Assembly: GCA_040954595.2 (NCBI GenBank)
Contig: CM082596.2
Coordinates: forward strand, 1,090,736 to 1,154,735
Origin: Balanoglossus misakiensis
Lineage: Eukaryota > Animalia > Hemichordata
Direction of reading: 5' to 3'
DNA length: 64,000 nucleotides
Position 1 is the stretch's first letter, and each line of letters starts with the position of its first letter. A model generated the notes under the pieces. That model was not told where the DNA came from. It made no database searches and saw nothing but the letters and a program-made list of their open reading frames with translations. The position numbers and the translations under genes were made by a program. Positions 8,065 to 64,000 of the stretch are shown one piece after another.

Positions 8065-8070
8065 CTTTAT
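8065..8070 (-). terminator. Probable poly(A) signal of the MPP7-like gene
   Basis: AATAAA on minus strand at the end of a ~1.7 kb AT-rich tract after the stop codon, just before the MED1 promoter region. Confidence 0.4.
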
Positions 8071-12700: not shown

Positions 12701-15700
12701 ATTGATATCTTACCCTGATGAAGGGACTTGCCAAGATCTGAGAAAGTTCTTTGGCGTCGGAATTTGAGGGTCGATTGCGCAAGTCATCTGCAAGCTGAAA
12801 AATGTTAAGGCATCATCAAGGTTAGATGAACATTTCTAGTCTGGTTTTTGGCAGGTGTATTGATTGTTTTTGCTTCTAAGAATCTGCTAATAGCAGTCAT
12901 CATTACTTACATCATAAGCTGTTTGGGAGGCATTTCCAACTACAGGGCATGGTTCTATTGTTTCATGTGATGAAACTTTACTGTGGATCTGAAATTAGAA
13001 TGGAAGACAGATACCTTAAAACGAAAGTTCAAATTTCTCCGAGTCCTATGTGGGGGCGCTGTGTTATCATGAAAAATTGGCCGTGTGGTTTAATATATAC
13101 AAAGCAATCTGGAATTCACAATAAATTAATTATGACTAATTTTGATTAATCATGCCACTGGAGTCACAGCTCAGCTACTAAATACATATATTTATATTAC
13201 TGCCGTGCATATAGGGTAATTTACATGGCCAAACTATTTTTTATTCATTTCGTTTTCTAATTTTAACCATATGTGACTGTAAATTATCATACTTGTATCA
13301 ACATACAATTCAATATTGAGTCATAAATTATATCTTCATACGAGGAAAGGACTTAAAATTCTCATGATTCCATCCTCTATGGAGATATGCCATCTGTATT
13401 GACATTTGCCATCTCCAACAGTAATAACTGAATATTTCTGATGAATTCCGTGAATAGTCCCTCGTAACATTCACAAACAGAAACTATAATTTGATCCAAT
13501 TTAAATCCAGTATTCCCTGCTCAATAGGAATCCAGTGTATCATTATCTCCAGAATTGATTACAATGTCCGGTTCGAAAAGAACCTCTCACAAAATTCCTT
13601 AAAGACAGTCCCTGAGTGACAGTGTGTGACACAGAAACGCAAGTCTGAAAAGACTGTCCGCTCTAATTTTAATAATTCTAACCTTTCTGTCTTTTTCTGT
13701 CAACCTTCGAACACTTTAATCAACATCATGACAATTCAGAGTCTAACATTTACAGATAACATCTTCTTTCACAGTGATTCATGAAATGCAATTATTTCTC
13801 AGGGTTTTCCCGCGGGAATTCCATGCAGTTGAGGGCAAGGAAACATGGCAAACACTTCCCAGGGTAATTTATCCAGAATAACTGTCCCGTAATAAGACTA
13901 TTTGAACTACAATTTGTATTAATGTAAAACACCCAACATTTCATTGAATATACTCTCAGACAAAGAAGGCTTCAAATGCACATCTTTGAACAAACAAATC
14001 CACATAACAAATGAATGAAATTGGAGAGACTATGATTGACATTCTTACCTTAAGCAATGCTTGAATATCCTGACTGTGAAATAAATGTTTGAGAAATATC
14101 AAATCATCTTCTCGGCCGTCGACTTTGTTCTGAAGCTGGTCTAATGATGCAAGTAATCTCTGTAAGCCTGCAATTGAAGAATGAATGATCATCAGGGCTT
14201 ATGTTTCCATGGAGAATAAGATAAACTGAGCATAACATAAATCTAGTCTTGCAGAAAATACCACCATTTTCACTGAACAACACACCCATACTCACTTGAA
14301 CTTGTCTGGCACTTTGTTGAATATTCCATAGCAACTGAGAATTATCAGAACTGAACACACACAGTAGAGAATGCCAATCAGCCACACCTTGTATTGCCCC
14401 TCATATGCAACTAATTGAATTCTAATTGAATATTTGTTAATACTTTATCCCAGTCCTTTAAGTCTCCTTAAATACCTCAAGAGTGCAGCTCTTATCAGAC
14501 ATGGATATAAATTATCATTGTCATGCTGAATTATGTACACCTTCCTTGTGAACCAGTCTGGCAGACAAAATATCGTTTTCTGAACATTTTATTGATCTTT
14601 GAGATATCTTATGTACATTGTTTAGAAATCACTTACAAGTGGAATAAGATTTTTACAGTGTAGAAGTAATATTGGGGTCAGTTTTGTTTCACAATGAGAA
14701 GGCAAAACAGCTTAGTCATAAAAAATGATCAAATTATATGAACTTGACATCACCAGTTGGTACTAGTAAATCATTTCTTAGGGCTTTACTGCAATTACTG
14801 TGAGGCTGGTAATGAATCTTGCATCGACCTGTACTGGCAATCCATCTCACTAAATTTTGGTCAGGAAAATTGATGTTTTACAGTAAACCACCCTGCAAAT
14901 TGCTTACTTCCTGTACAGAAATGAACCTTAATGGACCGAATTTTACAAAATCTAGAGTACAAATGATTTCTAAAACCAGTTCTGATGAACAGAAGGTTTC
15001 GGCAGCAATTGCACAGACATTTAGAAGCTATCTGCAGGCAATTTGCATCTGAAGTCAGTGGATTGTAAAGTTGCAAAATGTCAAATTTCTACGGCTGATA
15101 AAAAGTGAAGTCAGTGAATCAGAATTGAACTTTGGAGTTCTTCCGTAGCTCATGTTATATGTTCAGCTTTTAGTGGTTTCTGTCTTTGGATTTTTCTAAG
15201 GCTTCCAAGATGGCCGACATTTTGATGTAGACGTATTGCATGTGTCCAAGTCACACACATGATGCATGTATTCTTCCGGTCAGAGAATACGTACATGATG
15301 CAAAATACTGATTTTCAGAGAGACTGACGGTGAATGAATTGACATAACTGTTAAAAGAGGTCAAAGGTGACCCAGGCAAGCTTTTCTCTGCAGACTTTTA
15401 ATGATTTCATGGTTCACAAATTCAAAGGAATACATGAATGTTTTTGAACCACTCTTCTCGGGAAGATTACAGATGTGTCATCACTGAGAATGGGCAGATG
15501 ATCCTCTTGGGAATGGGGTCATCACAATGTAAGCCATCAGGGTACAATTTTGTGAATTCTACTAGAATACAGTTACACGTTTTCATTAAATTACCAGGTG
15601 AGAAACCCTGAGTGACCATCTTGATATCATGTTTTTCATTGATGTGAGTTACTAATGACAGGTGGACTCATTTTTCAAATGTCAGAGTTTCTGAATTTCA

Positions 15701-37179: not shown

Positions 37180-40100
37180 TTACTGCATTGGTAGCTGTAA
37201 AAACTCTCTGGCTTCTACAAGGCAGCCATCTTGTTCGTACTTTTGTAGCAAGTGTTTCCACATGTTGTGAGTTCCAAGCAATTCCTTGTTTCCTGTAAAT
37301 AAATGTCAAATTGTGAACTTTGCTCATAAACTGATTGTATCAATTAAGGTAGTTGTGAGTCTAACAGTCACATAGGGAAAGTTAAGGATTGTCAAAGTTA
37401 CTTACCTACGATGACCAATCCACGTTTCGCTCTGGTTATTGCTACGTTGATCTGATGTTCATCTGTGATGAATCCGAGGTTGCTTAGCAACCATCCCTGG
37501 GATGGCTTCTCCTCAATTTCTATTCTCGGAAGGGATCTCACAGTGGAAAAGATGACATAATCCCATTCGCTTCCTGTATAGTGAGACAAACACGTATTTG
37601 TGGTTTTAGTTTTTGTATTGATTTCATCTTCATGATGACATGGTGCGGACTGACAGAAAGATAAGATAAAACATTTCTTTGCTTTACCTTGACTTATGAT
37701 AACTGTACTGACAGCTATATCTTGGCGACCTTTGGCCTCTAACCTCTTTGTTATTTCTGAACACTGCGCTCTGTACTGAGACAGGATGATGATGGAGGCA
37801 GGGTTGACATGGTAACGGATCACTAATGTCAGGGCCATGCGCACCTGTGGAGAGGAATGGAGAAAAAAGCATTGGGTTTACTGAGTGCAATTATAAATTT
37901 TTCAATGGTAGCATAATTCACTGATTATTGACTTATAACTTTATAAACCCTGTGTATACCCTGAAATGCTAATTAAAGCTAGATTAGTTAACTGCTTTGA
38001 AGTGAAGAGAAGTGAATAAATTCAGTTTCCCCTGCCAGCATGAACTTACAACTTGCTCAACTTCTTCCAGATTACTTCTAGACTGTTCGCTGCCTTCTGC
38101 AGTCGACACTGTTAGCTTTTCCTCAGTGCCAACAATGTGACAAAACAGAGTTGGGTTTTGTTCGCCACCTGGCCAAACGTCAAGACCACGTGGTCGTTGT
38201 AGCACCTGTACTGCCGTCTCGAGCCTGCGATCGTAGAAATGGTCAGACGGAAATTGGCATATACCTGGATGCTGTGGAGGTTCAAAGACATTAACATGTA
38301 TTTCAGTAAGATCACATGTGGCTGAAGTGATATTTCTGTATTTTTATTGAGTTTGTCACCATTATAAAATGAGTGAACTGAAGCAATATTTGTCGAAATT
38401 TATCTGCCAAGAAGCATAACTTTTCTTCAACCTATATGTTGTACTGATAGTCCATATCCTACCATTCTGTACTGCAATGTTAGCATCATAGCTTTCTTTT
38501 CGTATCTCTCGAGCATTGATATCTCCATGCCTGCTTTCTTTGCGATGTCTTCGGTGACGATTGGACGGAGTTGCTTGTGGTCTCCGATCAGTACTATCTG
38601 TTTCGGCTCGGTCGTTACCAAGGGAATGATCGTTTCCGGTTCGGTGCACATGCCACACTCGTCCACAATGCATTGGTGGATTTGTGTTCCTTCTGCAATA
38701 CGCCGCCCTCCTGATGTCACACATGTACATAAGATGATATCATTTCGCTGAAGTTCCAACTTCTCTGCTTCCCTGACGATGTTGCGATAGCTCAACTCGT
38801 CTGTGCGGTCGTATGAATATGCCGGATCGCGGAACAAATCGTCGTAATACTTCAACTGTTGGTGGTAGGGGTTTGATGACTTTCGTATCAAATAGTGCAG
38901 AGAAACATCTCTGTGTTCAGGTGCCATGGTAACCTCACTTCCTTTTGCTCTCAGTGGATACTCTGGCATGCCTGGAACTGGGAAGGTCTGTCGTTCTATG
39001 CTTTCACTGTACACTCGAACGATTCTGAGGTGGGCAATCTTCTTCAAGTATGCTAAAAATAGAAAAATAGAACAGCATTTATATATATAGGACTACTGTA
39101 AACTCAAAGAACATTTCACAGTCAAATTAATTTATCATCTTTACCTGTAACGACGTCGATCGACTTGTTAGATGGCCCACAATACAAAACCTGCTTGTGA
39201 CCATAGTGCTGTACCAGCTGATTTAGATGTACAAACCAGAACGCTATGTGTACACCAGTCACCGTTTTGCCAGTTCCTGAAATAAACAAGGAAGTTCAAA
39301 TATCATCTTCATAAAAGTCATCTGGTGATAAACTTGTTATAAAAACAGATATCAACCAACAGTTTAATAGTTACATTTGTAGTTTCATGATCAATCATTG
39401 AGGCTCGGAAATAGTGCAACCAGTGTGATTACCTGGTGGTCCTTGAATCAGCATAAATGACTGGCTCAAAGCTGTCCTGACTGCCTTATCTTGGACAGAG
39501 TTCAGTTTGTAGAATGGTCGCGGGTGTGTCTTGATCTCAGTGTCACGAACTGTAAGAGCTAGTGCGTTGTCTGTATAGAAAATATATCATGTTTATTTAA
39601 ATGGCAATTTAGAGAAGTTGCTGTTCAAAGGGAATATAAAATGAGAAATTGTCAATAAATTCCAGCATGTTCTTACCGCCCATAGTTATCTTTCGTCCAA
39701 GGCAGATATCTTGAACAAACTTAGATGCATTTCCCAAGGCGTTCATAGCATCTTTTACTCGTCTGAAACAAACAGACAGATACAGAAAAGTGTTATTCAA
39801 TCTCCAGAATGAATTGGTTACAAGATTTCTCAATTTTCTTGATATCATTCCTTCTAAGATTCAGCTGTGAATTTTACCACTTTGATGTACTAATCACGTG
39901 ATGGCTGGTTATTTGTGACTGTACGGTCCTCGCACAATAATTACATCCAATATATATTAACAGTTGGCTTACTCTGAAACAAAAATGTGAAACAACTGGT
40001 TAATAAGCATTGAAGTATGCATACCTGTCGGGCATAGTCTGTGGAATCCATTCAACAGTACATGGCAGAAGATGATTTGGTTGTTGCTGAAGAAGTCTGT

Positions 40101-43100
40101 CCGGTATCTGATTTGTACCCTGGTTCAGTTTGATATGAACCTCTGTGAATTCCTGGTTTCGTTCCACGGCCGTACTCACGCAATGACCAATCCAACGGAA
40201 ACCAACTGGTCTATCAGCCACCTCAACACTGCCTTTCTTTTTGCTTGCCACCTTTCCATCTTTCATCTGGTAACGCACACACAAGAAGCCATAGTGCCTG
40301 TTGGGGTTTTTGTCTTCAACTTTGCAGCCGTCAAACTTTATTTGTCTGCTCATACAGAAAGCAGATGACAACCGGAAGATGCCTTCATATGCATCAGTGC
40401 CTTCTTCACACTGAGACCATTGGATTCCCACATCATGGATTGTGACAGTTTCACCAGCTGTAACCGCACTGTACGCTGAAACCATGGCGAGAAGTCTCCT
40501 CCAAACTCTCTGATAATCTGCGATGTTCCGCTTGTTTCTCAAGATAGCCGTTCTTTCGCTGGCAATCTCTGCGAAACAGTGAATGGGGTTGCTGCGATGC
40601 TCGACACAGAAATCCAGCTTTGGTGTGAGGTTAAACAACTGAACAACTGGCGTTAATGTGCCTTTCTTCATGCTAATAGACAACTGGACTTCAGCGACAT
40701 CACCGCAGGTATAGGTACGCTGAAACTGACAGAAATGCTTGCTGCTATCCCCAGAATCTGGACCAACTCCTTCTGATGTTACTTCTGTGCAGTAACTGGG
40801 TTGGTAACTGAGTTCTGGAGGTAACCCACTCATTGGATTGTTGAGGATGATGCTGATTCTGTGGTACACTGTTTGGAGTTTTGGTCGGTTTTCTGTGATC
40901 AGATATCTCATCATCTCCTGCCACAGACTACCAGGGATGTGCTTGACAAATCTGTCTGGTGAAAGAACAGCAGTTTCTGTACGCCTGACAGAGGGTTGGT
41001 CACTCTCTACATCTTGGTCTGCTTTATTCTCGTATATTCGTCCTTTCCACTTCAGAGTCACAGGACCATTTTCACCCAAGATGACTGGTTTCTCACACGG
41101 CTGCAGTGCACTGAACTTGAGAATGCGCTCTTCAGAAGGAATGTGTCGGTTGTGTTCACGAGTGTGTAGTTCGACATCCCCGTCTGATGTTGATGCGATG
41201 AATGCAAGACTTCGCACTGGTTCCTCTTTTAGTGTGGTCGCTATGTGTAGTGCCACTGTAGCCCGTTCGAACTCTTTCGCAAAAGCAGCCTGTTGATTGC
41301 AATTCTTGCATATATCCATGATGTCAGCACCACTGTATGGTGCCTCTTGCGATGAGAGGTATGCGTACACCAGTCGATGGACAACCAGATCAATATATCT
41401 CCTTATCGGCGATGTGAAATGAGTATATTCAGGCACATTCAGTGAAAAGTGTGAGGTTTCTTCATTTGTATGGCTAGAAGATATGTAGATGGATCGTTCT
41501 TGTATCCTCAAGTAACTGGCCAACATCACTGCTAACTGTGGATGATTCTGATCACTGAGAAGAAACTTCTGTAGCCGAGCCGTGTCCCCGAACTGAATGG
41601 CCTTCACTATTTCTTCCCATACTGTATTCAGAACATCAACATCAGCCCCTTGTCCAGGTCGCAGGAATTCTTGCAACTGAAGTAGCTCTGACTTCGCTAC
41701 CATATTCAGGCTGTTTGGAATCTGACTGCTGTGTTTTGCCTTCCACTCGCTGAGCTTTTCTGACTGAGGAGATTTCTGTCGACGAAGGGGTGTACAGTCA
41801 GGAAAGACACGAACAAGAAGATTTGCTACGTGCATATTAGCGAGTAACATTAATTCTTCGATCATTGAGTGTGCTTGTTGCGAGGTTGTATCATCATCAC
41901 TTTCATAGCTGCAGCAAAACCTTCCATCACCAAGACGACTGGTGCGAACTTTATCTGTCAACTTGTGCAAAATCTGGATACTTTCCTTGATGTTATCAGA
42001 GATGCCTTCAATTTCACCACCATCGATCACCTCCTCTGCTTGTTCATACGACAGTTTGGCCTTTGATCGAATAACTGAACAGCAAAGTTCAGGACTTGAT
42101 ATTTCTGCATCTTCTGTGAATGTCAGGAACAGAGTCAGAGCAAGTCGTGGTTTGCCAGGAAGTAAACTGCATAGCTTGGTGCTAAGCTGTGGTGGAAGCA
42201 TGTGTATTGGCGTCTGTTTCCATGGATAATGAGAAGTTGCTCTCCGACGAGCTTCTTTATCCAATTCACTGTCAGGATGCACAAAGAATGAAACATCAGC
42301 TATGTGGATGCCCACTCTGTATTGGTCATCTTCAAGCACTTCCACACTCAGAGCATCATCAAGGTCCGTTGACTCTGCTGGGTCTACAGTGAACACATCC
42401 AAGTCTTGTAGATTCTCTCGATTCTCGACTTCTGATGATGGAATTGTCCAGTTATCAGGATACTTCTGTGCTATTTCTTGCTTTGTTGCTATCTTGTACA
42501 CTGCTTTCACCCCATACACTGTTTTCAGTATGGCAGTGCCAGTTGCCAGAGTGTCTCCATAGGGAAGGACATCAACAGCCACGCATATTGGATAGCGATA
42601 ACGTGGATTCCAGTGCAAGAACCTCACCAGGAACACTTTATTCGGGCGTTCTTTGTTGGTCACTTTCTCATGACGTTTGACCTTCAAATCACCCGCTTTA
42701 GTGAAGGTACAGATGGGAATGGAGTATGGTGATCGAGATGCTGTATCGTCCCGCGGCTGAATCCAGATCATCTTAGGAAGGCTTCTGTTGAGGGGTGCCA
42801 TAAGATTTGGAGCATATTCATCCAGCACACACGCTATCTTCTGCAGTCTGGGTTCTACAGCTCGCTCTAAAATACCAATAACTCTGCCGTACGTTTTGTC
42901 CCTCCTTTCATCTCCTTCAGGGAAGTCATTTTCACTGTTGAGGATTTCAACAACAACTTCGTCGTTATTGAGAGCTCTGCCTCGCTTGATCTTGGTCGTG
43001 ATTTCAATCTCCTGACCTTCGGTTTCATCAAGAGTGACAGCATATGTTCTGCTGGGTTCTATGTACAGTTTACACCTCTTGTAGACATTTGGATTTGATG

Positions 43101-46100
43101 ACATCATATCTTCGAGATCTTCTTTACCATATTCTTTGATTAGAGTACTTTCATCTGTTTCAAGGGTTTCATTTTCATAGGGATCCCACATATACTCATC
43201 AGTGTCAGAATCATAATCTTCATCATGGTCAGTACCAAGTTGACGTCGGTATTGATTGCGTTGGCTGGACACAGATTGAAAATTGCCTTGGTGTGATACT
43301 CTCTGACCACCGATGATTCTCTCCCTTGATGCCACACCCACTTCTTCATCACTATCTTCAACATCTTCAAAAGCTCTTCCTTCTTCAATCTTTCGTCTGG
43401 TCTCATCTAACTGACGGGCCAACTCTTGCAATATCTCATCTATATCCAGTGACTCTAAGACATCGCCTTCATCATCTGATTCCCACTCGTCATATGTTTG
43501 AATGTTGTCATCAAAGTAACTGCTTTCTTCATCAGCACTGGTGTGTTTTGCCGCAAATGTAGGCACCGTCTTCTTTGTATGTTCAACAGTTTGATCATCT
43601 CGTTGATTCTGACATTTGATATCTGCTGCAGTATCTGCGGTAATCTCAGTCACTTCACAAAGCTGTTGGGATTCTGACTTGACAACATCAGTAGATGTTG
43701 GATGCCATGATGGTAGATAAGTAGAGGTTGGTTGCCATGGCAATAGATCAGCGGATATCGGTGGTTGCAATGCTGGTAGATCGGTAGATAATGGTGGCCA
43801 TGATGGTGCTCTACTTGCTGTACCTGGATCTGGAGGTTTTGCAGCCATCAGTTTACTGACTTCAGAGTATAATGCTTTAGGTTTTGGTGCATCATTCTTG
43901 CTAACAGAACTGCCCTCTCTAGCAGTTTTTGCATCATTCCTGCTGATGGGACTGTCTTCTTTTGTCAGTTTCGTCTTCGACCCTTGTTGTGTCGATGTAC
44001 CATCTGACTCTCTGGGAGTGAACTCTTTAGCTCTTGGGTCAAGTTCATTGTGAGTTGACAGGACCTGTTGTTCGATACTTTCGATTGTCAGCGTGTCAGG
44101 ATGCACACTCTGGTTCTTCTCACATTCAGATATGTAGCTTCGCCAGTTGTTCGAACATTTCCCCATAGAGCACAAGGCTATCGGATCGCCAATCACAGCG
44201 ACTAAGGACTGGGCACGCGTCAGTGCTGTGTTCAACAATTTTCTGTCTGATAGAAATCCAAGATTTAAGCTTTCGATATCGACGTCATCACCTTCTGCAA
44301 CTTTCCGTGTTCGAACAGTGCTTATGAATAGAGCACGGAATTCTTTACCTGTAGAAAATAATTTACAAAAAGAACATACATACATCCATTCAATGTCAGG
44401 TATCTTGTGTTCAGCATCAATCCTTTCATTGGTGGTGACTAATGTCACATCTCAAGAAAACCAAAGCATGAATTAAAAGGCTAATTTTTATGACTTTTGA
44501 ATTAAAAGTACCAATGGCATACATGCATGTATCTCAGCATCACAAGTCACCTTAATAAAGGTTGTCTTACCTTGAACGTTTAACACACGTTCAACAGTTA
44601 CTGCCCCAAGGCCCTTCTTGCGAAGGTTATTTCGAATCTGCTGGACCTGCCATTGGTGATTACAAAAGGAGATGTTTAAGTAAAACGCTCAAATAATAAT
44701 TAAACTTCAGAATGATTACCAATTCACCACAGTATCTTAGGGACGAAGCAACATACTTTTCAGTGAAGTGAATATAACCTGAAAGGCAACTTGATCATGA
44801 TTTCTCAGAGTGAATGTTTGGAAAGTTATTGAGATGTTGTTGATATTTTTCTTACCTGAGAGGAATATGGGGACACCACTCCAACTGTCCTTAAATCCTT
44901 CTTACCCCAATCCTTTGGCCAATCACGGCATAATGCCTCAACTCGGTACGAAATCTCCAAAACCTAAAAGTGAAAGAAAGAAAACTACATGATCAAATAC
45001 AAGATACACCTGAACAGAGGCTTGTACTTTTTTCTGAATCTTCACATGAAGTTGAACTTGAGACATTTTGATGGTCTTACCTCTGCCTTATTGTAGTAAG
45101 ATGTTCCCATTTTCTCCTCCTCTCCATTGGCACTGTAAAATGCCAGAGGATAAATTTCTGGGTGTCGTTTCTGAGGTGGATCAGAAGATGCGATCAACGC
45201 CTTGCCATAAAATAAGACGGAGATGAATTTCAGGATCTGTTCTTGACATCTGTAATTTTCATCCAGCATGATTCGATGGGGTTGGCTTGATTCTCCTTCT
45301 CTGATGTAGACTTTGAAAAGTCGTGTGAGGAGAGACTGGTCGAATCTGTGTCTCTTTGCATGGTCTGAATGCACCTGTAGAAACACGGAGATCAAAAATG
45401 TTAGTCCAAATGAACTTCTAACTATAAGCTTACCTCATACTGACAAACATATGTGTTGTTATTGGTGATGTGTTCGAGTACATGAAGCACTTTCAATATG
45501 GCATACGGTGATGTCACATTAGTTTTCGCGCCACTTTGCCATTGTTCCTTGTAAGTGCTTGCCCTACACTCTTGATGGCTAGATGTATGAAGTGACCATC
45601 CAGACCGAATAAAGTTCATGTGTTCATTCATTTGCTTCAAGAGTTAAGTCAGTTATAGCATAACACCAAATGAAACTGACAAATGTGAACTTGGTGACAC
45701 ATTCAGAATATTAATACAAACCTCTGGGCTCATCTGTTGGTGGTCTCCAGCGAGTATGATCTTGGTATTTCGACCAGCCAGGGTTATTGGCATGATGGCT
45801 TCTGTCTCCAGTGCTTGCCCCGCCTCATCGATGAAGACATGCGTGAAATGACCTTCTAACCCGATCCTCTGCAACACCACAGATGTCGTAAGTGTCGTCA
45901 CGACAACAGAATACTTCTTGACTTCTGTGATGTCATCATCTGTGGGCATACGTACTTGCTGCACGCCTCTTTTGGCTTCTTGAAGAGGGCAGTACTTGGC
46001 GACTGTTTGGTGTATGGTTTCTAAACGACGGATTCCAGCGTATATACGGAGAGGTCGTATCTGTGTGCACCCTTCCTTAACCATGTCATCAAAGTATTCT

Positions 46101-49100
46101 GTTATGTACAAGTCTGCAGCGCTGCAGTCAATAGAAAGATGTGAATGGTCAAAAGATGTATACGATCGAATCAAGTGAATATGTAACAGCATAAATTGTC
46201 ATGTTTATGTTAATAATAACGTACTGGTTAAATTGCTGAAGACATATCTCAAAGGTATATTATTTTTGACATGCACTTATATGAATAATCCTCATCTCAC
46301 CTGTTTGATATGGTACATAACAATATCCTTGCATCCGGTCGCTTGGTTACCAGCTGCTTAATAGACATCGCCATTGTATACGTCTTACCAGTACCAAATG
46401 GTCCATAGATAATCAAAGGAGTCGTGCTATCTCCATCAGTTGCTGAGATTGCCGCTACAGCTCGTAGTTGGTTGCTGTTCATCTTCAGCCCCGGTATCTT
46501 CTTGATTTTTCTCTTGTCTACAACCAGAGACTTGAATGATGGAAAGATGCATTTGAGCTTTTCAGTGGCCAGACCATCAATGGCGTAGTGTTGACGACAG
46601 AATGGTAGACGATTCATGCGAAACTGGATCTCAATTTCAATCTTCTGCTCGGCTTGAAGCTTGAGGTCCTTACAGCACTTCTGCCCAAGTTGAATGAATA
46701 TTGCTTGCTTGTCAACACCACTGAAGTCGCGGTCACTCACAATCTTTGCTTCATACACCTCTCGTGACTTTGACTGGCATGGCTTTATCAAGACGGAAGT
46801 GACACTTCTGAGAACAATCCTGCCTGCTTCGTAGTCATCTGAAAGTTCTTGTTGGAGTTGAACTTGGCTGAAAAGTTCACCTTCTTTAGTGTAGTGAGTC
46901 GTTGGTCCAACAGTTGACTCCACTGAGATGGACTTCAGCAGTGTTATGCTGGTTTTACAGTTCAATCTATGAACAGAAAAATGAAGCCATTACAATTAAA
47001 CAGAAGGCTTGATGTTGTACATGACATTAGGTCTATTTGCTATCAGTGGAGGTGTAATGTGACAGTACCCCATTTCTTCTTGCAATGCGACATGTATTCT
47101 ATGAAGAACTCACCCTTCCAGTATTTTCATCTGAGAAAGCTCTTCCAGATACAGTAGACGATGCATTTGATGTGTGTAGTTATTCTTCGTTATATCAAAC
47201 TCTCGTACTTGTAGCATTTGTTGCTGGAATATGGAGGGATCTTTGTACTTCTGCAAAAGCTCGCCATCAAACTGACACGGCTCAAATTCTTGGAATGGTA
47301 CGATGACACTATTATCTGAGTTCCAGACTGTGACAGCTGTTTGACTCTTCACATCACGGATGGATTCCAGTGCCTGGGAACTGCCAACATGGACAGTCAG
47401 CTTCTTCACCAACGCTGGTTCAGATCCAAAGTCAAACACTACCCATTGATGAAAGCTTCCGAATATTTGAGATTCAAAGCTTACTGGGACTTCAAAGTTG
47501 TAATCTTCTGTGGTAAACTTGCTGCCAGAAGCGATTTGGACCAGTTTCTTTCCATCCATCAAATGAAAATGTTGGCGACTAAGATCGTACAATAATCCCA
47601 CTCGGATAAGTTGCATCTGAAAGGCAATGGTATATTTTGTATATTAGTAATTCATAGTTTTTTAAAATTGAGATAATAAAAAGCTGAAGTTGCCTTTAGC
47701 AAAATATGGAAACACTTTACGACTAAATGTTACCTACCGTGTTTGAAGACAGCTTGAACCGCCACTGGTGATGCATCTTCTCAGTGCTGTCATCCTTCAA
47801 TAATGGAACTACTGTGTCTGAATCACACGTTATGTCCACATCTTCAATGAATTCACTCAACTACAAAATAATAATAGGGGGAGGTACTTTGTATTATCAA
47901 AGACAACATGCATTGAACGAGGATGAAAATAATGTTTGGAATCCACAGGAAAAATACACACCACTCTGTCACTTGATCGTTGGTTATGATACTTTTCAAT
48001 TAAAGTATCCATGAATGAAAACAGGTGTCGTTCTCTCGCAAACTTCCTTTTCATTTGACGATAGCCTGCTCTTTCCTTCCACTCTTCCAATTCTTCCTCA
48101 CTGTGTGCATACGTACATTCACCGTATGGGCAAGATTTGGCTTGGGCCGACTCCCTGAAAGACAACCAATAATACATGTATTAAACCTAAGAACATGTAT
48201 TCCAAATTTCAAAGTAATTGGACAAGTGCTTTCCAAAACAGGTAATTCCAAATGGCTGTTTTTGCCTTGGAGAAGATCTTACCTTGGACACATTCTAAGC
48301 CTGTCTTCATGCACATTCCAAGGTGGTGGTCTGTAATTCCACTCTCTATCTTTATCTGAAATCACCCTCATCCTATGGCTTGACGAAGTGAAGTGTTGCT
48401 GCAGCTGAATTCTTGAATTGCAACGTTTGTTGCAGTAGTCGCAGTAGAATTCATTCTGTCGGAAACGTGCCAGGTCAAGAGGAGTCCGGATTGGGGTATC
48501 ACCGATATGTTGTGGCTGTGGTCGAAGGGTTGGTTCCACAGGTGCTTTGGGTTGTGCTTTCTGTTTTAAAATCTTTACAAGATCTTTGAAAGTTGACACT
48601 GTGCAAAAGAAGATTTCACTGACATGAGTACCATAAATGATTGTGCAAAATGTAGGATGAAATGTGATTAATATTTAGCTTGGCAACTTCGGCCAATTAT
48701 CATGCTTTGGACTGAACCATAGTGGTGAAAGGGTTAAAATGATCATTACCTTTTCGCAGGGACTGCCACCTCCATAGCATCATCTCCTCTGGGGAATGAG
48801 GGTTTGCACAATCTCTTCCCATAAGCTGTTTGTAGTGGTCTTTCCCCCTCCACTTATGACTACACATTTTGAAGTTAGTCTGGTTTCTGTCAAGAAGGAA
48901 TTGAGGGATGCTGTTGACATCAACCCAACGCTTGGTTTGCTCGGAGAATATCATAATTTCTTGGTTGTCTTCCTTCCATTCATGGGAACCCTTGGCACAC
49001 TTCCCGTTTTGCTGAGGATTTTCTTCGACTAACTGTCTTGTACGAATCCAGCACCCTTTGCAGGCTACCTTTATTTTGAATGGAATTTGATGTACCACTG

Positions 49101-52100
49101 GGTCTGGTGCCTTCGGTTTTGGTTGAGTACCGGTATCTGTGGTGGAAGGGGTGGCTGCTGTTGTTGTTGTCATCGTTGTTGTTTGATGTATGGCAACTGG
49201 TTGGGTCACATAATATGTTGAAGCAGCTACAATCTGATTTCTAGTGATGCTCGTAACAGCTTCCAGTTCCCAGACTGCCTTCTCTGCTTCTGAGTGAGGG
49301 AATGTACACCTTTCGCGTAATGCAGGGATGTTGATATGGAATGCGTGGATACACCTTACGAACCGCGTACGATTGGCAACTTTGGGAGGAACCTCTCCAA
49401 TTCTGCCGACCATCAGATCCTTTCCATTCTGCACAACATGCATCATCATTTCATTTGTCTTCCATGGATGTTTATCATCACCACTGCAAAACATCCCATC
49501 AACGGGGGTCTTCACTATAATTCTTGAAGATTTCAGGAAGCAGTCTTTGCAGCACATGACAAACTGCCCACCACAATCAATAAGTAGTTTTGTGAGCTGC
49601 TCTGGTTTGGCGGGTGCTTTACCTGATGAGATGACTGGGGACTGGGCACGTTGTGGAGTTTCTGTTCTGGGAATGTAACTAACTCCGACATCAGTTGGAG
49701 CAACTTCTACTGATATTGGATATGCAGAAGGTTTAGGTGATAAGACTCTTGGTTCTGAGTCTTGGGGAACTTCCCTTGTCAGCTTCCCAGTTGTGACATC
49801 ACCATTATCTTCTCCACCAATGGCACGACTTGTATCACAGCCAGGTAATTGCTTCAAGTATGACACCAGACGTTGTCTGTTTGATACATTCTGCCTGTCA
49901 ATCGTCCAAAACTCAACTTCTTCCTCGCTGTGACAGAAGTAACAATTCTCCTCCCACACAGCACATTTTTCTTCACTGTCAAACTCGTTGCAAAGTCGGT
50001 ACTTGCCGGTGTAATTCTTCTTTGTACGAGATCTGATTTTCTTCCAAGCGAATACCCTCGCCGATTTCTTGGCGCACAGCAATATGTCTGCCCAACAGCT
50101 GTGTTCCAGACTTGAATTAAACCTGTAACTTCCTTGACCAAACTGTCTAGGTGTCTGAGTGTAACACTGTTTGCAGGCAAGGCGGAACTCATGGGTCTTG
50201 AGCATATTCTGAATGGCTGCTGGGAGACCGTTAACACTACATCGGTTGGATTTATCTGGAATTCCTACTGTCTCTTGAGGTGTAGGTCGTTTGGAGACTG
50301 TTGAAATCTGTATAATGGAGTGGGTTGGAGCTTCCTGTTGCAACACATTGGACCTGTTATTGACTAGAAACAAGCGATAATGATAGTCAAAAGGGTTAAT
50401 TCTGTCTTACTCTGATATGAACTATACAATGTAGTGTTTACCAAATCAGGCCTCACCTGTGTTTTCTGTGTTTTCGAAGGTGTCCAGTCCAGTTTGTGTT
50501 TCTCTGGTTTTCTCTAACATTTTCTTCGACTGCTAAATGAAAAAACATGTCTATATGAAAAGTCTTTGATACAGTTTGATGGCAATCATTTATAAATTTC
50601 ACTCTATCACAATACCACTGATATTTCTTGAGATTGGTTTTACCTTTTTCAGTTGAACTGTGGTCCACTCCGTAGTCTCATTATGTTCTGTGATGTCTGT
50701 CAGCGCTGAGAACATATTTTGATTCGATTGGATGCCAGGTATTTCCATTATCAGGTTTTCTTCCTCATTGTCAGATCCTCCGTCAGAGCCTGATTCATCT
50801 GTGTTCAAAGAAAAATATCATTTTCAATCTTTGGATATTATACTTGTGCGAGAATGTGAGAGTCAACCAAATATTTAAGGTATTATTGTGCAAATACGTG
50901 GTGCTTAGAGAACACTGAAAAACTGTGCTTATCAATCTGTGACATAAACAACACTGGTGCTTGTTCAACACGGTTACTTCATACAAAGATGCAATAGACA
51001 TTTCCCTACTTATTAAACTATTCCAAAATTCCCCCGGTATAAAAGTCGAGAGTTTGATGTAAATGATGTTGATGTACAAACTTTCATTTCTGAGCTAAGA
51101 CCATAGAGAGACCGACAGCACCAGCAAAAACCTCATCAATGTTCACAGCAGATTTTGAACAGGATGACATTGGTTTCTTGCCTTGCATATTGACAGTGGA
51201 CTCACTATCGTTACCATCATCTGCTGCCTCTTCAAGCGATGTAATTGCTCTTCCAGACAAATCTTGCTTTCCATTCTCCACATTTTCACTGCTTGCATTT
51301 CCTTAAACATGATTAAGGTTGGTGATTTTTGTGGACAAAGATGAATGTGTTTTATATTTATATTTAAATAGGTAATATAATTTTGTACGCTTTCCGACCT
51401 TGACAGCTGAACATAATAAACACATTTACAATATACCATGATCCTTTTGGAAAATGGGTTAGTATTGCACGTTAATAGGTTTAATTATTTTAACACAAAT
51501 CAGATTGAGAGTGTTAGTGTGGTTAAGTGCAATTAAAGTAGAGTTAGGTGTTATTGCAATGACCATGCTATTTGAAATTAGGGATTTGAACAGACAACGT
51601 GAAAATTTCTTACTGTTATTGGACGCTGAACTTGAGCGTGACTTTTGCTTTTTCTTCTTTTTCTTTTTCTTCTTCCTTTTCCCTTTGTTGTCAGCCGTCT
51701 AAAATGAGAAATCACTTGTAAGGTAAATGGTATGAGCAATCATAATCGTTACTGGCTCTGATAAGTATATCAGCACTCGAAGGGGATGACAAACGGTCCT
51801 GACTGAAGGGTTGGGTCCTTCCAACATACTGTACAACAAAGGTGCCAAAATACATGGTAAAGTTGGACCTCTAATTAAAGAGGGAACTGGGGTGAAAGGG
51901 TTAAATCTATCCCTTACCTGTGTGTTAGACTTGACTTCTTTTGGAAGCCATGACTTGTCCACTTCACTGTCATCTGCAGTAGGTTCCTCAGCCTTGAAAG
52001 TATCTAGTGCATCTGCCTTTGATCCCATGATATCACTGTAGTGTGTGACCTTTCCTTCTGATCCTGGAATTGGTGTGTCCTGCACTTGATTTGCTCCAAA

Positions 52101-54720
52101 CGGCGACTGTTGGCTGGTGCTTAACTTCCCTTTAAATTGGCTAAAGAAACTTTCATCGCAATTGGATTCCACATCTGGTCGTTTACCAGGTGCAACCGTC
52201 GGACTTTCAGGGGGCATGGGGGGAAACATCCCTTGGTGTAAGAGCAATGATGAATGCATATGTAGATCAAAATCTTCGTCCTCCTCCTCCTCCTCCTTAA
52301 AGTCTTGGTCTGTGATCCAAGGCGTATACAAAGTTTGCTGGCAAGGAAAGATAAAGCATGATTTTAAGTTCAAGTTTGACCTATCTGAAAAATTTCCACT
52401 CCTAAACACAACGATCAGACCATTTCCTTAGAACATAAATGTATTTGAGTACAATCCAGTTGACTCACCTTAACTGAATGACCATTTGTGGGAGCATTAT
52501 GTTGCCTAATTCGTTCAGTCTTCTCTTCAATAAGTCTCTCTATTTCTCTTGCCAACTCTGAGACTTTTGCATCCTAGTATAACAGAAACCAAGCAGTATT
52601 GTGTATTATTGGAAACAGTGGACAAGAGAACAAGATCTATTGCCTATTGACACAGCAAAACTGCAGGCAAAATGTACCTTGCAACTGACAAGATACGCAA
52701 CAAAAATTATATTTCATATGAATTAAAAAGTCTGCTTACTTTTCTAATCATTTGCAAGTCTCTGACAGTGATGAGTGCTTCGGTTAGAAATCCTAATTTT
52801 TTCATCGCCTTGGCTTTTCTAAACATTGCTTTCTCATTGTGAGGATTTATCATTTTGAGTACTGCAATGATATTAAGATCAAAAGGTTACAGAATATGAA
52901 ACAGAAAGGTATAATAAGCAAATAATAAATACATACATACATACATACATACATACATACATACATACATACATACATACATACATACATACATACATAC
53001 ATACATACATACATACATACATACAGTGCAGCTTAGGAATAGCTTTCCAACTGCACCAACACTGGGTCAGCTCTGTTTAAACACTGGGTCAACTCTGGGT
53101 TGGCACCCTATTGGCGCTCTAATTAGCACCTATTGGGCTTGTGTTTAACTGGGGTGTTCCAAAACAATAGGGTGCGCCAAGGTGCTAACACTGAACAATG
53201 CCAAGTGCCAGGGCCAACAGATTCACACCTTTGTAACACTTGGAACACACAGGCTAACACTGTGTGCCAAAACAATAGGGTGCGCCAAGGTTTAACACCT
53301 TTGTAGCACATGCTAACACTGAACAATGCCAAGTGCCAGGGCCAACAGATTCACACCTTTGTAACACTTGGAACACACAGGCTAACACTGTGTTGGCTCA
53401 TTATAAACACCGTGTCAGCAAGTTGTTAGCAAATTGGAAAGCTATTCCTAAGCTGCACTGTACATACATACATACATACATACATACATACATACATACA
53501 TACATACATACATACATACATACATACATACATACATACAGATTAATGACAAGATTATTATTAGTTAAGTTAATAATCTAGTACTTACTGTAGTCACAGT
53601 CATCTAGCACCTGACGGGCACTGTCTTTGTCCTGTTTGTGAAATAAATATGAATCCACATCTATATTAATTTCACCAAACATTCAAACTTGTCAATGACA
53701 GGTGTTTTGAAGCACACAGCAGACAGCAAGATCTAATATGCCAAGCTTAATGTAAGATATGTTCATTCATGTATGATGTTTGAAAGACAAGTAAATGTAA
53801 AACTTTACGAGTTACTCACCCCAAAACGAAGGAGGCACTCAGCACGATTACAAAGCACAGTCTCTTCCATTGACCAATCTTTTCCTAAGCCTTCTTCACA
53901 CTGTAGGGTCATTAGATTGAGAACTTCATTGTAGCAGATGCAAGCTTTACTAATTTCCTTCTCGCAGAAGAGTGCATTACCTTCGGCTTTTAGATCCAAT
54001 TCAAGTTTTACAATGAATTCCTTGAGCTGAAACGAACATAGGGAGTTCATGTTTGGTACACTGTTATGGACTAAAATAGGTAGAAAGTTTGCCCAAAGTT
54101 TATTACGAAATAGGATCGTGCATTGCAATTTGTCATCTTGCTGAGGTGTTACAATAAGGTATAAAATGACTACCATAAATAATCAAATAAACTAGCAAGT
54201 TTACATGTTTTATTGCGTCATAAAGCATATTATTAACATTAATGACATCTTACCTGTTGTAGGGGTATAGCTTTCCTCTTTGGAGATCTGAAAACGAATC
54301 AAAAATAATTGTTCAGTTTAGCCACTGTCCGTTGAGATTAGAGACATTGCCCGACTTTACTTGATGGTATGGAGAGAGAAAAATAACTTCAGACTCACTT
54401 TGCAACTTTGAGAGTCTCCGTGATTCTTCTCTGTCGTTTGGAACGACTTTCTCCCTCTGGTGGCCATTGGATTTCTGTATTACCATTAGGCCAGTTTGAT
54501 AAGTTGTGATAGACAAGATTCTTAATTGCCCTTTCCCGATCCATCTTCTTAGGGAAAGTTACGACTTCTTCTGCAAAAATAAATTAGCGATATTGGCGAA
54601 CGAAAAGGGATGGCCGCGTAAAGCAAACATTTTCATAAGCAAGATGTTCATTTCACTTCGTTCATTTCAGCATGATGGATAGTACTGACCAATCACAGCC
54701 CTTTCTAGTCTGATCCTCAT
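37180..54720 (-). CDS. HELZ2: Giant ZC3H7/RoXaN-HELZ2-like protein: TPR + CCCH/C2H2 zinc fingers + SF1 (UPF1-like) helicase + PAM2 + RNB exoribonuclease + second SF1 helicase (~3,900 aa, ~31 exons)
   Basis: Phase-consistent exons from ATG 54720 (or the ATG in exon 54399-54570) through TPR exons (53820-54026 [15 protein letters not shown]; ~52740-52862 KAMFRKAKA), zinc-finger exons (48750-50363, 48283-48598, ~47961-48154), helicase 1 (GPFGTGKT ~46380-46404; FIDEAGQ), a 4.3-kb exon with RNB motifs [12 protein letters not shown] and HFTSPIRRY, helicase 2 ([31 protein letters not shown]), stop TAA 37180-37182. The symbol denotes the closest family only. Confidence 0.9.
52930..53023. repeat. (TACA)n microsatellite, left of MITE
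   Basis: Perfect tetranucleotide run of ~94 bp. Confidence 0.97.
53024..53460. mobile_element. MITE, Tc1/mariner-like, 27-bp perfect TIRs, inserted at a TA within a (TACA)n tract
   Basis: CAGTGCAGCTTAGGAATAGCTTTCCAA at 53024 and its exact reverse complement ending at 53460; TA on both flanks; internal direct repeats (~83 bp at 53183 and 53311; 25 bp at 53159 and 53267). Confidence 0.9.
53461..53540. repeat. (TACA)n microsatellite, right of MITE
   Basis: Perfect tetranucleotide run of ~80 bp. Confidence 0.97.
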
Positions 54721-57375: not shown

Positions 57376-59785
57376 CTACTTTTTTGATTGTTTTCGCTTT
57401 TGTTCTTCAAAGATTTCCGTTGCCTTTTGGTAAATTCGCACATCGTAGTACAAAGCCTCTGAAACTTTCGGGTCTGATTGAAGTGTCGACTTCAACTCTT
57501 TGACAATTTCTGATCTGTTTCGCTTTGTCACTTCGCCTTCTTCTGTGTAAGCATGATAATTCCACGATTGGGTGGAGCACGTGGAAAAAGGTAATTGAAA
57601 TGCGCCCTCTAGCAATTGAAGGGTGGTGGTGTATTCAGTGTTCAGTCCTATCACAGCAAACCAGTCCTCGAGGTTTTCCAGAACGTATTGTAAAATTTCC
57701 TCTTTATCGTATTTGCTCATGGTGGATTCAAATACCAGTTCGTTTCTATACCAACAAGGGATCATGTTTGGTTCTTCCGGCAAACCCTTCTTTTTGCGGA
57801 GCTCGTCGACGACGTCATCGTATTCGTGAGTGCAGAAACGGGGGTTATACAGTAACTGGCGGAAGAAAAAACTGCCTTGGAACATTGCCCACTCGTTGAC
57901 AGAAACCTTATTGGCGTCTTTTATAACGCAGTGGTATTCATTTCTTACTTTGCAATATTCGTATGACGATATGGCTCTCTCGTAAGGATCTCTCAGTACT
58001 GTTATATATGCACAGTTGGTCTGCAAATAGTCACAATTTCCGAATATGTGGCCCCCAGTGTAGAACTTGTGAAACACCTTGTGAGTTGGTGATCTCTTCA
58101 TACCTTCGTAATAATCGCCAGAATTTATATCACAAACCACGAACGGCTGATCAAAATTAAATCTTTTTGCAATGTTTTCCATACAAATCTTCAAAGTGGT
58201 TCCACCCGATTTCTGGTTATGTACAAATACAATATTACTTGAGGTGTATTCATCACCCGTTCTTTTACCTTTAGTGTAAAAGTTCGGCAAGAAATTTTGT
58301 TTGTCCAGCCATGGAAATTCTTCCAAAATTCTCCTATATTTGGATGATGTTGTATTTCTGTTTTTGGTCATTTGGTCTTTGGCATTGGTCGCTACATTTG
58401 CCCTAGCTGGTTGAGCTACTGCAATTGCTGGTTGGCCTGCCACATTCACTGGTTGGCCTGCCACATTCACTGGTTGGCCTGCCACACCCACTGGTTGGCC
58501 CGCCACCTTTACTGGTTGGCCTGCCACGTACACTGGTTGGCCAGCCACATTCACTGGTTGGCCTACAACGTTCACTGGTTGGCCGGGTTGGCTCCCAAAT
58601 CGAGCCTCTGGATTTACAGGGGCTGCCACCTGTGGAGCTGCCATATTCACTGGTTGACCTGCCATGTTAAATGGGTGACCGACCATATTTACTGGTTGAC
58701 CGACCATGTTTACTGGTGGACCGACCACATTCACTGGTTGACCAACCATGTTCACTGGTTGCATTCCTACATTCACTGGTTGGTGTCCCGCATCTACTGG
58801 TTGGCCCACCCCGTTCACTGGATTGTTGGCCGCTATGTTTAATTGGACGGCCATATTTTCGGGCTGGTTTCCCTGGTTGGGTAACTGAGCTGCCGGGTTC
58901 GCTGATTGGACGGGTTCGTTTACTGACTTAGCTGTCAAGCCTGGTGATTGGCCAGCTGCATTCACTGGTTGTGGCACAACGTTTTGTGGCTGAACAGCCG
59001 GATTTACTGGTCTTCCAACTATTGGCCCAACAATCACATCATCAGACTGCACATTGTTTTGTTTATTCCCCGCTTCTTGTCCGAAATTCGGTTTCGTCAT
59101 CTCTTCTCTTCTCAGTGGGTTTTCGTGTCTGTTGTGAGGAGGAAATAGAGGATCTGGTCATAGCCTACATAAGTTATATTCAAGTCGATTACACAGCGTT
59201 CCTCTAATCCATCACCAGACTATACTGGCCGTCAGCCAACTGCTGTAAATGTGTTGTTCATTTTTTGTATACCCACGGCGAGACTTCTTTACAAACCGTT
59301 GCTTCTTTGTGTTGTCATTAAATGACAAATAGTCAGTGGCACTGGAATGACATGGCCACTATCTATAGAATGGACAATAGGGGTCCGACATGGGCCGGGG
59401 GATCCTTTCACGAGAGGGGTCTAGCATGGGAGAGAGAATCTTTTCATGATATATATTTCACATGAATTGCATAATGTAGACAGAATTTTTACTGCAGCAC
59501 ACCGCTGGCAATTGTTGATTTTTACAATGCAAATTCAAAGCCTCTTCCCCAATCCTGCTTTATGGCAGAAGATAAAATAAAATGACATCGTTTGCGTAAA
59601 GAATCATGTTTGTACGTTATGCTTATAAACAGATTATCCAGGTGGGTCACATCTACTTACCCGACTCCTGTGAAGTCTACGTGTATGGTGGGTCCCAGTG
59701 ACTTCCATGACAACAGAAGTGTTGTCAGTAGCAAGCCCACGGCAATTAACACCGTGATTTGCTTCTTTTTATGGTATATCGCCAT
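57376..59785 (-). CDS. Type II membrane (Golgi) carbohydrate sulfotransferase with repetitive stem, paralog 1
   Basis: Exon 59661-59785 MAIYHKKKQITVLIAVGLLLTTLLLSW (signal anchor, phase-2 GTAAGT donor) joins exon 57376-59128. 5'-PSB motif VFVHNQKSGGTT and 3'-PB motif LRDPYERAISSYEY. Confidence 0.88.
58428..58830 (-). repeat. Coding 21-bp minisatellite encoding (GQPVNVA/V)n
   Basis: Repeated ggttggcctgccacattcact-like units; degenerate copies extend to ~59010. Confidence 0.92.
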
Positions 59786-61890: not shown

Positions 61891-63184
61891 TCAATTGGTG
61901 TTTCTTTCGTATGTAGTCTTCTGTCTGTCAAAAATTTTGCGTGCTTCCTCGAATATCTTGACATCGAAATACAAAGCCTCTTGGACTTCTGGGTCCTGCA
62001 TCAGCTGCTGTTTGAGCTGGCTGACGATGTTCTTGCGTTGAACGCCGCCTCCTTCACCCTCGGCTGTGTAAACGTGGTAGTTGAGGACACTGCCTTTGCA
62101 ACGAGAGAACGGTAGTTGGAAAGCACCTTCTAACATTCCAAGGAATGTATCATAGTCGTCGTTGATTCCCATGACGGCGAACCAGTCCTCCAGGTGATCT
62201 AATACATACCGTAAAACCTTCATTTTGTCCCTCTTATTCATGACTTCACTCAAAACCAGTTCATTTCTGTACCAGCAAGGTATTTTAGCAGCCGTTTCTT
62301 TCAATCCTTTCTTTACACGTAAACTTTCTATGACTTTGTCAGATTGTTGTGTGCAAAATTCGAAGTTGTAGAGCAACTGTCTGAAGAAGAAGCTCCCTTG
62401 AAATACCGCCCAGTCATTAACAGATACCTCCTTTGCGTCATAAATCTGGCAGTGGAGTTCGTTTCGGACTTTGCAGTATTCGTACGACGATATCAGTCGT
62501 TCATAGGGATCTCTTAACACAGTGACATAAGCGCATGCTTGGGAGGCAAAATCGCAGGTCTGAAAAGAGTGACCACCAGAATGGAATTTGACAAGGTCAT
62601 GACGACCGTGCCTTGTCATGGCGCTGTAATAATCCCCCGAATTGATATCACAGACCACAGCCATTCTGTCGAAGTGGAAATCTTTGGCGATATCTTCCAT
62701 GCAAAGTTTGAGGGTGCTGCCACCTGACTTCTGGTTGTGTACAAACACCACTGAGGCCGAAGAATAATTCTTGGCAGTTTCTTCGCCTTGTTGCGACTTT
62801 CTTTTGGTGTAGAAATTTGGCATGTAATTCGGTCGGACTATCCAAGGAAATCTCTTGGTAATGTCTGCGTCGTTTGATGTTGTCGACTCGCTTTGGCGTA
62901 ATTGGTCAAGAAACCGATCAGCCTCTTTTGCATCAAAGATATTTGTTGGCAATTTACTTTCCAGTTGATTGTTGGAAAGCCCTCCTGTGTCAGCTGGTTG
63001 TTTGACATTATTAACTGCCGGCTGTCCCTCCTTTGAAGAAGTATCTGCCTTTTTTGGTTGAAGTTGCTGGGCTTGGACAGCGCCATCGTGTGGTTCGATG
63101 TATAATTTTGATTGTCCTGGTTTATGTTGAACAGGCTGTGCGTTTTCTGTTGTCTTTCCATCCCCGTTTCTTGGTGGCACGTTT
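61891..63184 (-). CDS. Carbohydrate sulfotransferase paralog 2, catalytic exon (5' exon(s) uncertain or outside window)
   Basis: VFVHNQKSGGST, LRDPYERLISSYEYCKVRNE, FQGSFFFRQLLYN and IPCWYRNELV shared with paralog 1. Phase-2 acceptor ttctcgcag at ~63185, same phase as in paralog 1. Possible small exon ~63626-63688. Confidence 0.85.
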
Positions 63185-64000
63185 CTGCGAGAATAAATTA
63201 AATGCATTAATGGCCATGAAGGAGATTATGTGAATGGTAGCCAGTGGAGCCAACACTCTGGGTATGGTCGCTATGGTAACGATTCGCGCAGTCGTACTAC
63301 GCACATTCTGAAAATACTGACGGGAAGACTATTATAGTTAATTGGAATTCTAATTGAAATGGTGCATAAAACAGCTGTTGTCATCAATTCTTCACAAAGT
63401 GATAACCACCATGCATGACATTTTGCAGAGGTTGTCTATTCAACCAGAAATGACGGGAATGTATTGTATTCTCAAAATGTAATGCGTTTTTTCTGGGACT
63501 CTGGTTGTCCGAAATTTGGTCCGACGCCAGACAGTGTTACGTCAGTGGAATCGGATTGGGTCGCGTCGAATAGTCGGACCATGACATAATAGTATACAGC
63601 AAATTATGGTCGGTCCATGAACATACCTAGACCAGACACCAAACTGATGTGTACAGTATGGTTGACTCTTTGGGGACAATACTGTCACCTATTAAATTGT
63701 AATGTATGCACTGTTTGTCAGCAAACGGCACCCTTTAGGCTATCTTTGCGTTGCAATCAATTACTCAAATGGGTGGCTTTTGTTGGAGCGTTCACGTCAG
63801 ATACTCTAAGTCCCAGGGCTCCCGGTCTGCCCATAGTCCAGCGCTATTAATAACACTATGCTAGTTGTTGCACTAAATTAAAAAGCTCATGTGACGAGGG
63901 GAGAGAGAAGCTAACAAATGCCAGCATTTCTGTCATCACATTGAATATAGTACAAATTGATAAGCTTGATTTATTAGCTTGCTCTTCTCTTCATTTTACT

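Follow-up and report, generated by a model that had tools for sequence, protein, structure and literature searches.

An acorn-worm HELZ2-family gene with a ZC3H7-like head and a helicase-RNase-helicase body, in a likely ancestral bilaterian layout

We describe a gene on the minus strand of a 64,000-nucleotide (nt) stretch of the acorn worm Balanoglossus misakiensis (GenBank assembly GCA_040954595.2, contig CM082596.2, positions 1,090,736 to 1,154,735), which we call the window. It is best read as a single HELZ2-family gene that keeps the likely ancestral bilaterian layout and whose protein likely selects, unwinds and degrades RNA in one chain, a reading to which we give a probability of about 0.8. 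That layout likely comprised tetratricopeptide repeats (TPR), four C2H2/CCCH zinc-finger units, a helicase, a PAM2-like motif, an RNB nuclease and a second helicase. The acorn-worm reading frame is open throughout, its domains stand in this order with their catalytic motifs intact, and the layout recurs in other phyla. Since HELZ2 already has three homologous zinc units, the gene is a HELZ2 with a complete head and not two unrelated families joined. An earlier note on this DNA had presented it as a union of two families; the HELZ2-type body it saw stands, and its surprise was overstated, homology between the zinc units being already in print according to excerpts of PMC10516660.

One chain across the zinc-finger/helicase boundary

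The zinc-finger part and the helicase part belong to one predicted polypeptide that reads through the boundary. The model, built from a six-frame reading with AG and GT sites chosen by coordinate, runs from an ATG at 54544 to a stop at 37180 in 30 exons, totalling 11,796 nt and 3,931 amino acids (aa). All 29 introns are GT-AG with matching phases, and the sole stop is the terminal one. A homologue in one piece accompanies this open frame: residues 25-3931 of the model align with Ptychodera flava XP_070570215.1 (3,846 aa) in a single high-scoring segment pair at 56% identity, which excludes chance. In a second P. flava model, XP_070570216.1 (1,905 aa), TPR, fingers and helicase 1 are also joined; these comparison proteins are themselves predicted RefSeq models. 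Together they confirm, at the level of sequence, the earlier claim of a single polypeptide with phase-compatible GT-AG joins and no stop at the boundary.

Introns at the boundary are short and their junctions conserved. Introns 12-16 measure 151, 128, 101, 121 and 147 nt, and none contains AATAAA or ATTAAA. Each of their junctions is gap-free in all three homologues tested (P0002, P0003 and P0004), and against P0003 so are all junctions of introns 12-29. Two of these introns mark positions of interest: intron 12 (48599..48749, minus strand, 151 nt), where the database models of two relatives end, and intron 14 (47861..47961, minus strand, 101 nt, phase 0). A 10,340-base contig encodes P0209, a 3,216-aa protein that includes units 1-4, RNB and the two helicases; the contig would fit a relative's spliced transcript. 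The Logan member P0017 does not reach across the boundary.

A ZC3H7-like head with four position-matched zinc units

The head consists of TPR followed by four C2H2/CCCH units, each matching the same-numbered unit of ZC3H7. Pfam barely detects this region, and hidden Markov models (HMMs) built from seven named vertebrate ZC3H7 proteins match it in ZC3H7 order. The N-terminal helix and TPR (aa 33-208; 52502..54448, exons 1-6) score 76 bits against the HMM made from vertebrate ZC3H7 only, and Pfam TPR_2 gives a weak match to the head (E value 0.008), below cutoff. Zinc unit 1 (C2H2-like plus CCCH, aa 576-690; 49867..50211) scores 81 bits, unit 2 (aa 786-903; 49228..49581) 26 bits and unit 3 (aa 949-1062, with the HMM match running to 1063; 48750..49092) 42 bits, the last present in ZC3H7 and absent from vertebrate HELZ2. 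Unit 4 (JAZ-type C2H2 plus CCCH, aa 1110-1215; 48013..48458, exons 13-14) scores 60 bits and is also called by Pfam as zf-C2H2_jaz (E value 1.9e-7). All lie on the minus strand.

A phylogeny of individual units agrees with this numbering. A tree of 96 units, drawn from 31 proteins and excluding unit 4, sorts units 1, 2 and 3 into clades of their own (support 99/97, 97/94 and 100/97), each holding both ZC3H7 and invertebrate HELZ2. HMM order and unit tree together bear out the earlier suggestion that the N-terminus follows ZC3H7 block by block. The tree also disfavours a five-unit ancestor in which unit 1 here and unit 1 in ZC3H7 would be different copies: where two unit-1 copies occur, they group together within amphioxus, and likewise within lophotrochozoans, which makes a four-unit ancestor simpler. 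In a concatenated head tree the acorn-worm head groups with hemichordate HELZ2 heads (100/100), outside the ZC3H7 clade.

It is the zinc units, not the TPR, that decide the ZC3H7 kinship of the head. A reverse TPR HMM, built from 13 invertebrate heads, scores most full-length ZC3H7 TPRs at 87-122 bits and covers the helix before the TPR. Longer TPR-only proteins reach 37-65 bits, mostly starting at profile position 46 or later, and several other TPR-only matches score 74-165 bits. A PDB sequence search with P. flava P0001 returned generic TPR proteins only. AlphaFold models zinc unit 1 as one compact domain (predicted local distance difference test score, pLDDT, 86.5; predicted template modelling score, pTM, 0.78). 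Foldseek found no PDB match to this model at an E value of 0.001 or below; the top row, the ZC3H7A CCCH structure 2d9m, is not significant (E value 1.2). A word-based search with exon 12 returned two proteins and missed vertebrate ZC3H7, so blanks from such a search mean little.

A helicase-RNase-helicase body with a PAM2-like motif

Behind the head lies a HELZ2-type body in which the catalytic motifs of helicases and nuclease are intact. All its features are on the minus strand. The pre-helicase region (46519..47860), common to HELZ2 and insect HELZ, leads into a Upf1-like SF1 helicase (44095..46491; Pfam AAA_11 and AAA_12) with Walker A at aa 1629 and Walker B (DEAG) at aa 1760. An OB_HELZ2 domain (42859..43131; PF25049, E value 1.2e-20) precedes the RNB 3'-5' exoribonuclease domain (41353..42420; PF00773, E value 2.3e-82), in which all four catalytic-motif aspartates are present (aa 2611-2620). 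A second Upf1-like SF1 helicase (37200..39514; AAA_11/AAA_12) carries Walker A at aa 3469 and Walker B (DECG) at aa 3645. Both helicases retain Walker A and B and motifs III and VI, judged by helicase and RNB patterns that we take to be the standard ones.

A PAM2-like motif (aa 2058-2067; 44014..44043, minus strand) just after helicase 1 is a predicted binding site for poly(A)-binding protein. In a search with what we take to be the PAM2 consensus, 55 of 105 proteins (isoforms counted) have the pattern no more than 70 residues from the end of the helicase, and none of 21,000 shuffles does. Pfam PAM2 is called at the corresponding place in insect HELZ and amphioxus; on this gene's exon it gives no match. 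Cnidarian, ambulacrarian and amphioxus HELZ2s and two insect HELZ-type proteins have the motif, and it is absent from vertebrate HELZ2s and from long lophotrochozoan HELZ2s. A PPG-hydrophobic motif, presumably the GYF-binding pattern, does not occur in the model.

The helicase 1 phylogeny places the gene with vertebrate HELZ2 rather than with HELZ (Shimodaira-Hasegawa-like approximate likelihood ratio test 89, in a quick tree with a long-branch outgroup), within a hemichordate clade supported at 100; its nearest relatives are acorn-worm proteins. Insect and Mya proteins lacking RNB come together (97), and the outer branches are RNB-bearing proteins of cnidarians and sponges. This placement of RNB-less proteins inside an RNB-bearing tree, with a long-branched outgroup and no vertebrate HELZ retrieved, is a lead only.

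The layout is spread across five phyla

We surveyed homologues among the best 150 of 230 matches, with 20 clusters named. TPR and all four unit types occur together in 24 of the 100 helicase 1 plus RNB proteins examined, isoforms counted. Sixteen named sources account for these 24, and five phyla are represented: hemichordates, echinoderms, amphioxus, molluscs and a brachiopod. The deuterostome sources are Ptychodera, two Asterias, Patiria, Antedon and two Branchiostoma; the lophotrochozoan ones are Mya, Sinanodonta, Saccostrea, two Haliotis, Babylonia, Nucella and Gigantopelta, with Lingula. Many invertebrate paralogues have lost units, and among named vertebrate HELZ2s neither TPR nor unit 3 is found (0 of 12 for each).

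Proteins that stop at the head show a complementary spread. Among the best 150 of 230 matches, 25 proteins carry unit 4 without the pre-helicase region, and 24 of them end 12-30 residues past the unit-4 match. All 20 with a named source are from vertebrates (19) or a tunicate (1, Styela), so that none of these 20 named stand-alone four-unit proteins comes from amphioxus, ambulacrarians or lophotrochozoans; three of the other five fall within the ZC3H7 clade.

The wider family is rich in paralogues. At least three HELZ2-like loci lie on one P. flava contig (P0001, P0002, P0003 and P0186), and Glandiceps, Antedon, Patiria, Acanthaster and Branchiostoma each have several paralogues with differing unit losses. 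So many paralogues with varied losses suggest a fast-changing, immune-type family. Finger, pre-helicase and helicase blocks are repeated internally in P0185 (Gigantopelta, 5,239 aa) and in P0187 and P0190 from corals, which could be tandem genes that annotation has run together or else genuine duplications. A further relative, P0088 (1,574 aa), matches the zinc units five times but neither a helicase nor the ZC3H7-type TPR, and is unexplained.

A long HELZ2 as the probable source of ZC3H7

ZC3H7 likely split off from a long HELZ2-type gene as a detached head. Given the complementary spread of the parts, the simplest reading is that a long ancestral HELZ2 was duplicated and its parts shared out. 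Duplication would have taken place in the tunicate-vertebrate stem; one copy would have ended right after unit 4 and become ZC3H7, and the other would have lost TPR and unit 3 to become vertebrate HELZ2. In the alignment the putative break point lies close to intron 14 (phase 0): the last residues of ZC3H7 match the helix encoded at the end of exon 14, which puts the ZC3H7 stop no more than a few codons from that intron.

We lean slightly towards a broader account that derives three vertebrate RNA regulators from the long invertebrate HELZ2. ZC3H7A/B would be its head, cut near intron 14 in the tunicate-vertebrate stem; HELZ would be an older copy truncated behind helicase 1 and PAM2; and vertebrate HELZ2 would be the copy that lacks TPR, unit 3 and PAM2. 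If so, ZC3H7 and HELZ once served as the targeting modules of a self-contained nuclease and today recruit CCR4-NOT instead, and invertebrate counterparts of the 'chordate-only' ZC3H7 family lie concealed within HELZ2. The earlier note had offered two options, an ancestral architecture that split into ZC3H7, HELZ and HELZ2 or a lineage-specific fusion. The ancestral layout gains support and the fusion falls with the spread over five phyla, while the HELZ part of the split is touched by two insect proteins only.

Several observations weigh against the ancestral, single-gene reading. The model's exon joins come from homology rather than transcript reads. Annotation divides the closest P. flava match between two proteins of a single contig (P0001, 941 aa, and P0186, 2,438 aa, the latter 70% identical to the model over 2,511 columns), with model residues 1063-1423 in neither, and the Acanthaster annotation is split at the same place (P0176 and P0188). 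These splits fit annotation breaks; the two Acanthaster halves meet end to end at residue 937 of Patiria's unsplit protein, and the 3' half is flagged as low quality. On the head, TPR-only proteins score up to 83 bits on the ZC3H7 TPR HMM against 76 for this gene, a maximum that sets aside two proteins, scoring 201 and 220 bits, that are probably pieces of ZC3H7. The TPR match is thus moderately specific and suggestive by itself. Echinoderm TPRs score just 18-25 bits, and cnidarian HELZ2s have TPR repeats and some fingers without a clear four-unit series. The concatenated head tree has a polytomy at its base, and approximately unbiased tests reject none of the groupings tried (ZC3H7 with vertebrate HELZ2, p 0.28; all chordates, 0.29; ZC3H7 with lophotrochozoans, 0.21). 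The trees settle no order of events, so the direction of fission is read from distribution alone.

Alternative explanations draw on some of the same evidence. The long gene could be real and also yield a short ZC3H7-like product, with TPR and units 1-3, that ends in intron 12. Two independent database models do read into that intron (P. flava XP_070571182.1 and Acanthaster XP_022112260.1-62.1), but it has neither AATAAA nor ATTAAA in its 151 nt, the abutting, partly low-quality Acanthaster halves look like annotation breaks, and true ZC3H7 ends past unit 4 rather than unit 3; we consider such a product unlikely. A shade less likely again is an old stand-alone ZC3H7 gene that joined a helicase-RNB gene in the bilaterian stem and afterwards ceased to exist as a gene of its own outside tunicates and vertebrates. 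The trees do not reject ZC3H7 outside chordates, and the lack of a clear four-unit series in cnidarian HELZ2s would suit this history. It requires, however, separate losses in amphioxus, ambulacrarians and lophotrochozoans, the very groups absent from the 20 named stand-alone proteins, and TPR repeats are already present in cnidarian HELZ2s.

Two adjacent genes, one ZC3H7-like and one HELZ2-like, joined by the model alone, would account for the split annotation of the closest P. flava match. Against them stand boundary introns of 101-151 nt, probably too short for a 3' end and a promoter, with matching phases and gap-free homology, and one-chain models in 16 named sources, which together make this explanation very improbable. 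A fusion specific to the acorn-worm lineage, in favour of which we found nothing, is scarcely credible, being refuted by the five-phylum layout unless all those models are wrong. We retain the single HELZ2-family gene with a likely ancestral layout: the layout is a real and widespread variant of a known family, and the evolutionary story built on it is good but unproven.

Proposed mechanism and implications

By analogy with its better-known relatives, the protein may work as a self-guided RNA nuclease. The ZC3H7-like head would pick RNA targets, its zinc units binding RNA and its TPR binding partner proteins, as in ZC3H7A/B and HELZ. The PAM2-like motif could tether the enzyme to poly(A)-binding protein, as in HELZ. 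ATP-driven unwinding by the helicases would feed RNA to RNB for 3'-5' degradation, on the model of human HELZ2 (PMC10516660), whose example also makes viral or transposon RNA the probable target. The coupling of recognition, unwinding and degradation that the earlier note saw in the chain is likewise an inference.

The layout gives a concrete account of where ZC3H7A/B came from: they would have begun as the targeting head of a helicase-exonuclease. Three predictions follow. The fingers of ZC3H7 and HELZ2 should recognise related RNA features; vertebrate ZC3H7 and HELZ2 should overlap in their targets or work together in trans; and invertebrate HELZ2 should be linked to poly(A)-binding protein. 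Some invertebrate database entries named 'ZC3H7B-like' are likely front halves of split HELZ2 models. In the open-access literature on HELZ2 and ZC3H7, judged from titles and abstract openings, we did not find the TPR head, the PAM2 of HELZ2 or the fission reading; no description of the long layout came up there, and RefSeq models of it exist under the name HELZ2-like.

Exon structure and the surrounding window

The coding region occupies 37180..54544 of the minus strand, a model drawn from splice sites and homology. The earlier note had set the limit of the feature at 54720; the frame near 54720 closes at 54670, and the start lies instead at 54544. The motifs it quoted are present in the sequence. 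From high to low coordinates, exons 1-6 are 54544-54399, 54287-54254, 54026-53820, 53631-53589, 52861-52740 and 52573-52469; exons 7-12 are 52337-51918, 51698-51614, 51301-51122, 50798-50644, 50532-50457 and 50363-48750; and exons 13-18 are 48598-48283, 48154-47962, 47860-47738, 47616-47114, 46966-46301 and 46121-45722. Exons 19-24 follow at 45374-45081, 44963-44856, 44646-44571, 44348-40025, 39762-39677 and 39570-39433, and exons 25-30 at 39276-39145, 39052-38463, 38271-38050, 37844-37688, 37573-37406 and 37292-37180. Exons 7-11 form a low-complexity linker (50457..52337, minus strand). Its exact splicing is uncertain because the junctions of introns 6-11 (aa 219-524) are low-complexity and mostly gapped in alignments with homologues, and because exon 9, whose skipping would keep phase, has a weak donor (51122).

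The window holds no second copy of the gene. Intron 4 contains a 441-nt element (53022-53462) that is bounded by perfect terminal inverted repeats of 29 nt and has a direct repeat of 83 nt inside; it sits within a (TACA)n microsatellite and looks like a miniature inverted-repeat transposable element. Elsewhere on the minus strand, 5283-14400 carries a multi-exon MAGUK-type gene with PDZ, SH3 and guanylate kinase exons. Two long, mutually similar open frames lie at 57379-59157 and 61894-63225, with weak Sulfotransfer_2 matches below cutoff; the former has a repetitive stem rich in Pro, Val, Asn and Gln. A 1,195-codon open frame without a Pfam match leaves the window edge at 1-3585.

Comparison with known systems

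Vertebrate HELZ2 (PRIC285; Huntzinger et al. 2023, PMC10516660) is the closest known system. It has the same order of C2H2/CCCH units, pre-helicase region, Upf1-like helicase, OB, RNB and second helicase, but has no N-terminal TPR, unit 3 or PAM2-like motif, all of which the acorn-worm gene possesses; the acorn-worm protein is also about 1,000 aa longer. In excerpts of that paper HELZ2 has three zinc units, against four here, and they are homologous to the four of ZC3H7 (Supp. Fig. 3), for vertebrates only. The same excerpts place invertebrate HELZ2 in corals and molluscs, with no mention there of a TPR head (the paper's sole 'TPR' stands in the title of a reference), and describe human HELZ2 as an interferon-induced, active 3'-5' RNase whose helicases permit degradation of duplex RNA. 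All four RNB aspartates are present in the acorn-worm gene, whereas human HELZ2 has Asn at the second.

ZC3H7A and ZC3H7B (RoXaN) share with the acorn-worm head a helix and TPR, a disordered linker, four position-matched units and a helix after unit 4. ZC3H7 stops 12-30 residues past unit 4 and has no enzyme domains, whereas the acorn-worm chain continues for about 2,700 aa, and the spacer between units 1 and 2 is about 96 aa here against 17-44 in eight ZC3H7 proteins. Excerpts of a recent preprint (bioRxiv 10.1101/2025.04.21.649502) report that ZC3H7A/B bind mRNAs and recruit CCR4-NOT and GIGYF2/4EHP, and state that the family is chordate-only, without known lower-eukaryote orthologues.

HELZ (Hanet et al. 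2019, PMC6769256; insect P0214 and P0218) has in common the unit-4 finger, the pre-helicase region and helicase 1. Directly behind the helicase it has a PAM2, where the acorn-worm gene has a PAM2-like motif that Pfam does not call; through its PAM2, human HELZ binds PABPC1 according to excerpts of that paper. HELZ differs in having no RNB, second helicase or units 1-3 and in carrying a long low-complexity tail; the insect TPR signal is weak in the two proteins compared. The same full layout as in the acorn worm appears in automatic RefSeq 'HELZ2-like' models from Ptychodera, Asterias, Branchiostoma, Mya, Lingula and others, although in molluscs, Lingula and amphioxus, unlike here, unit 1 is duplicated.

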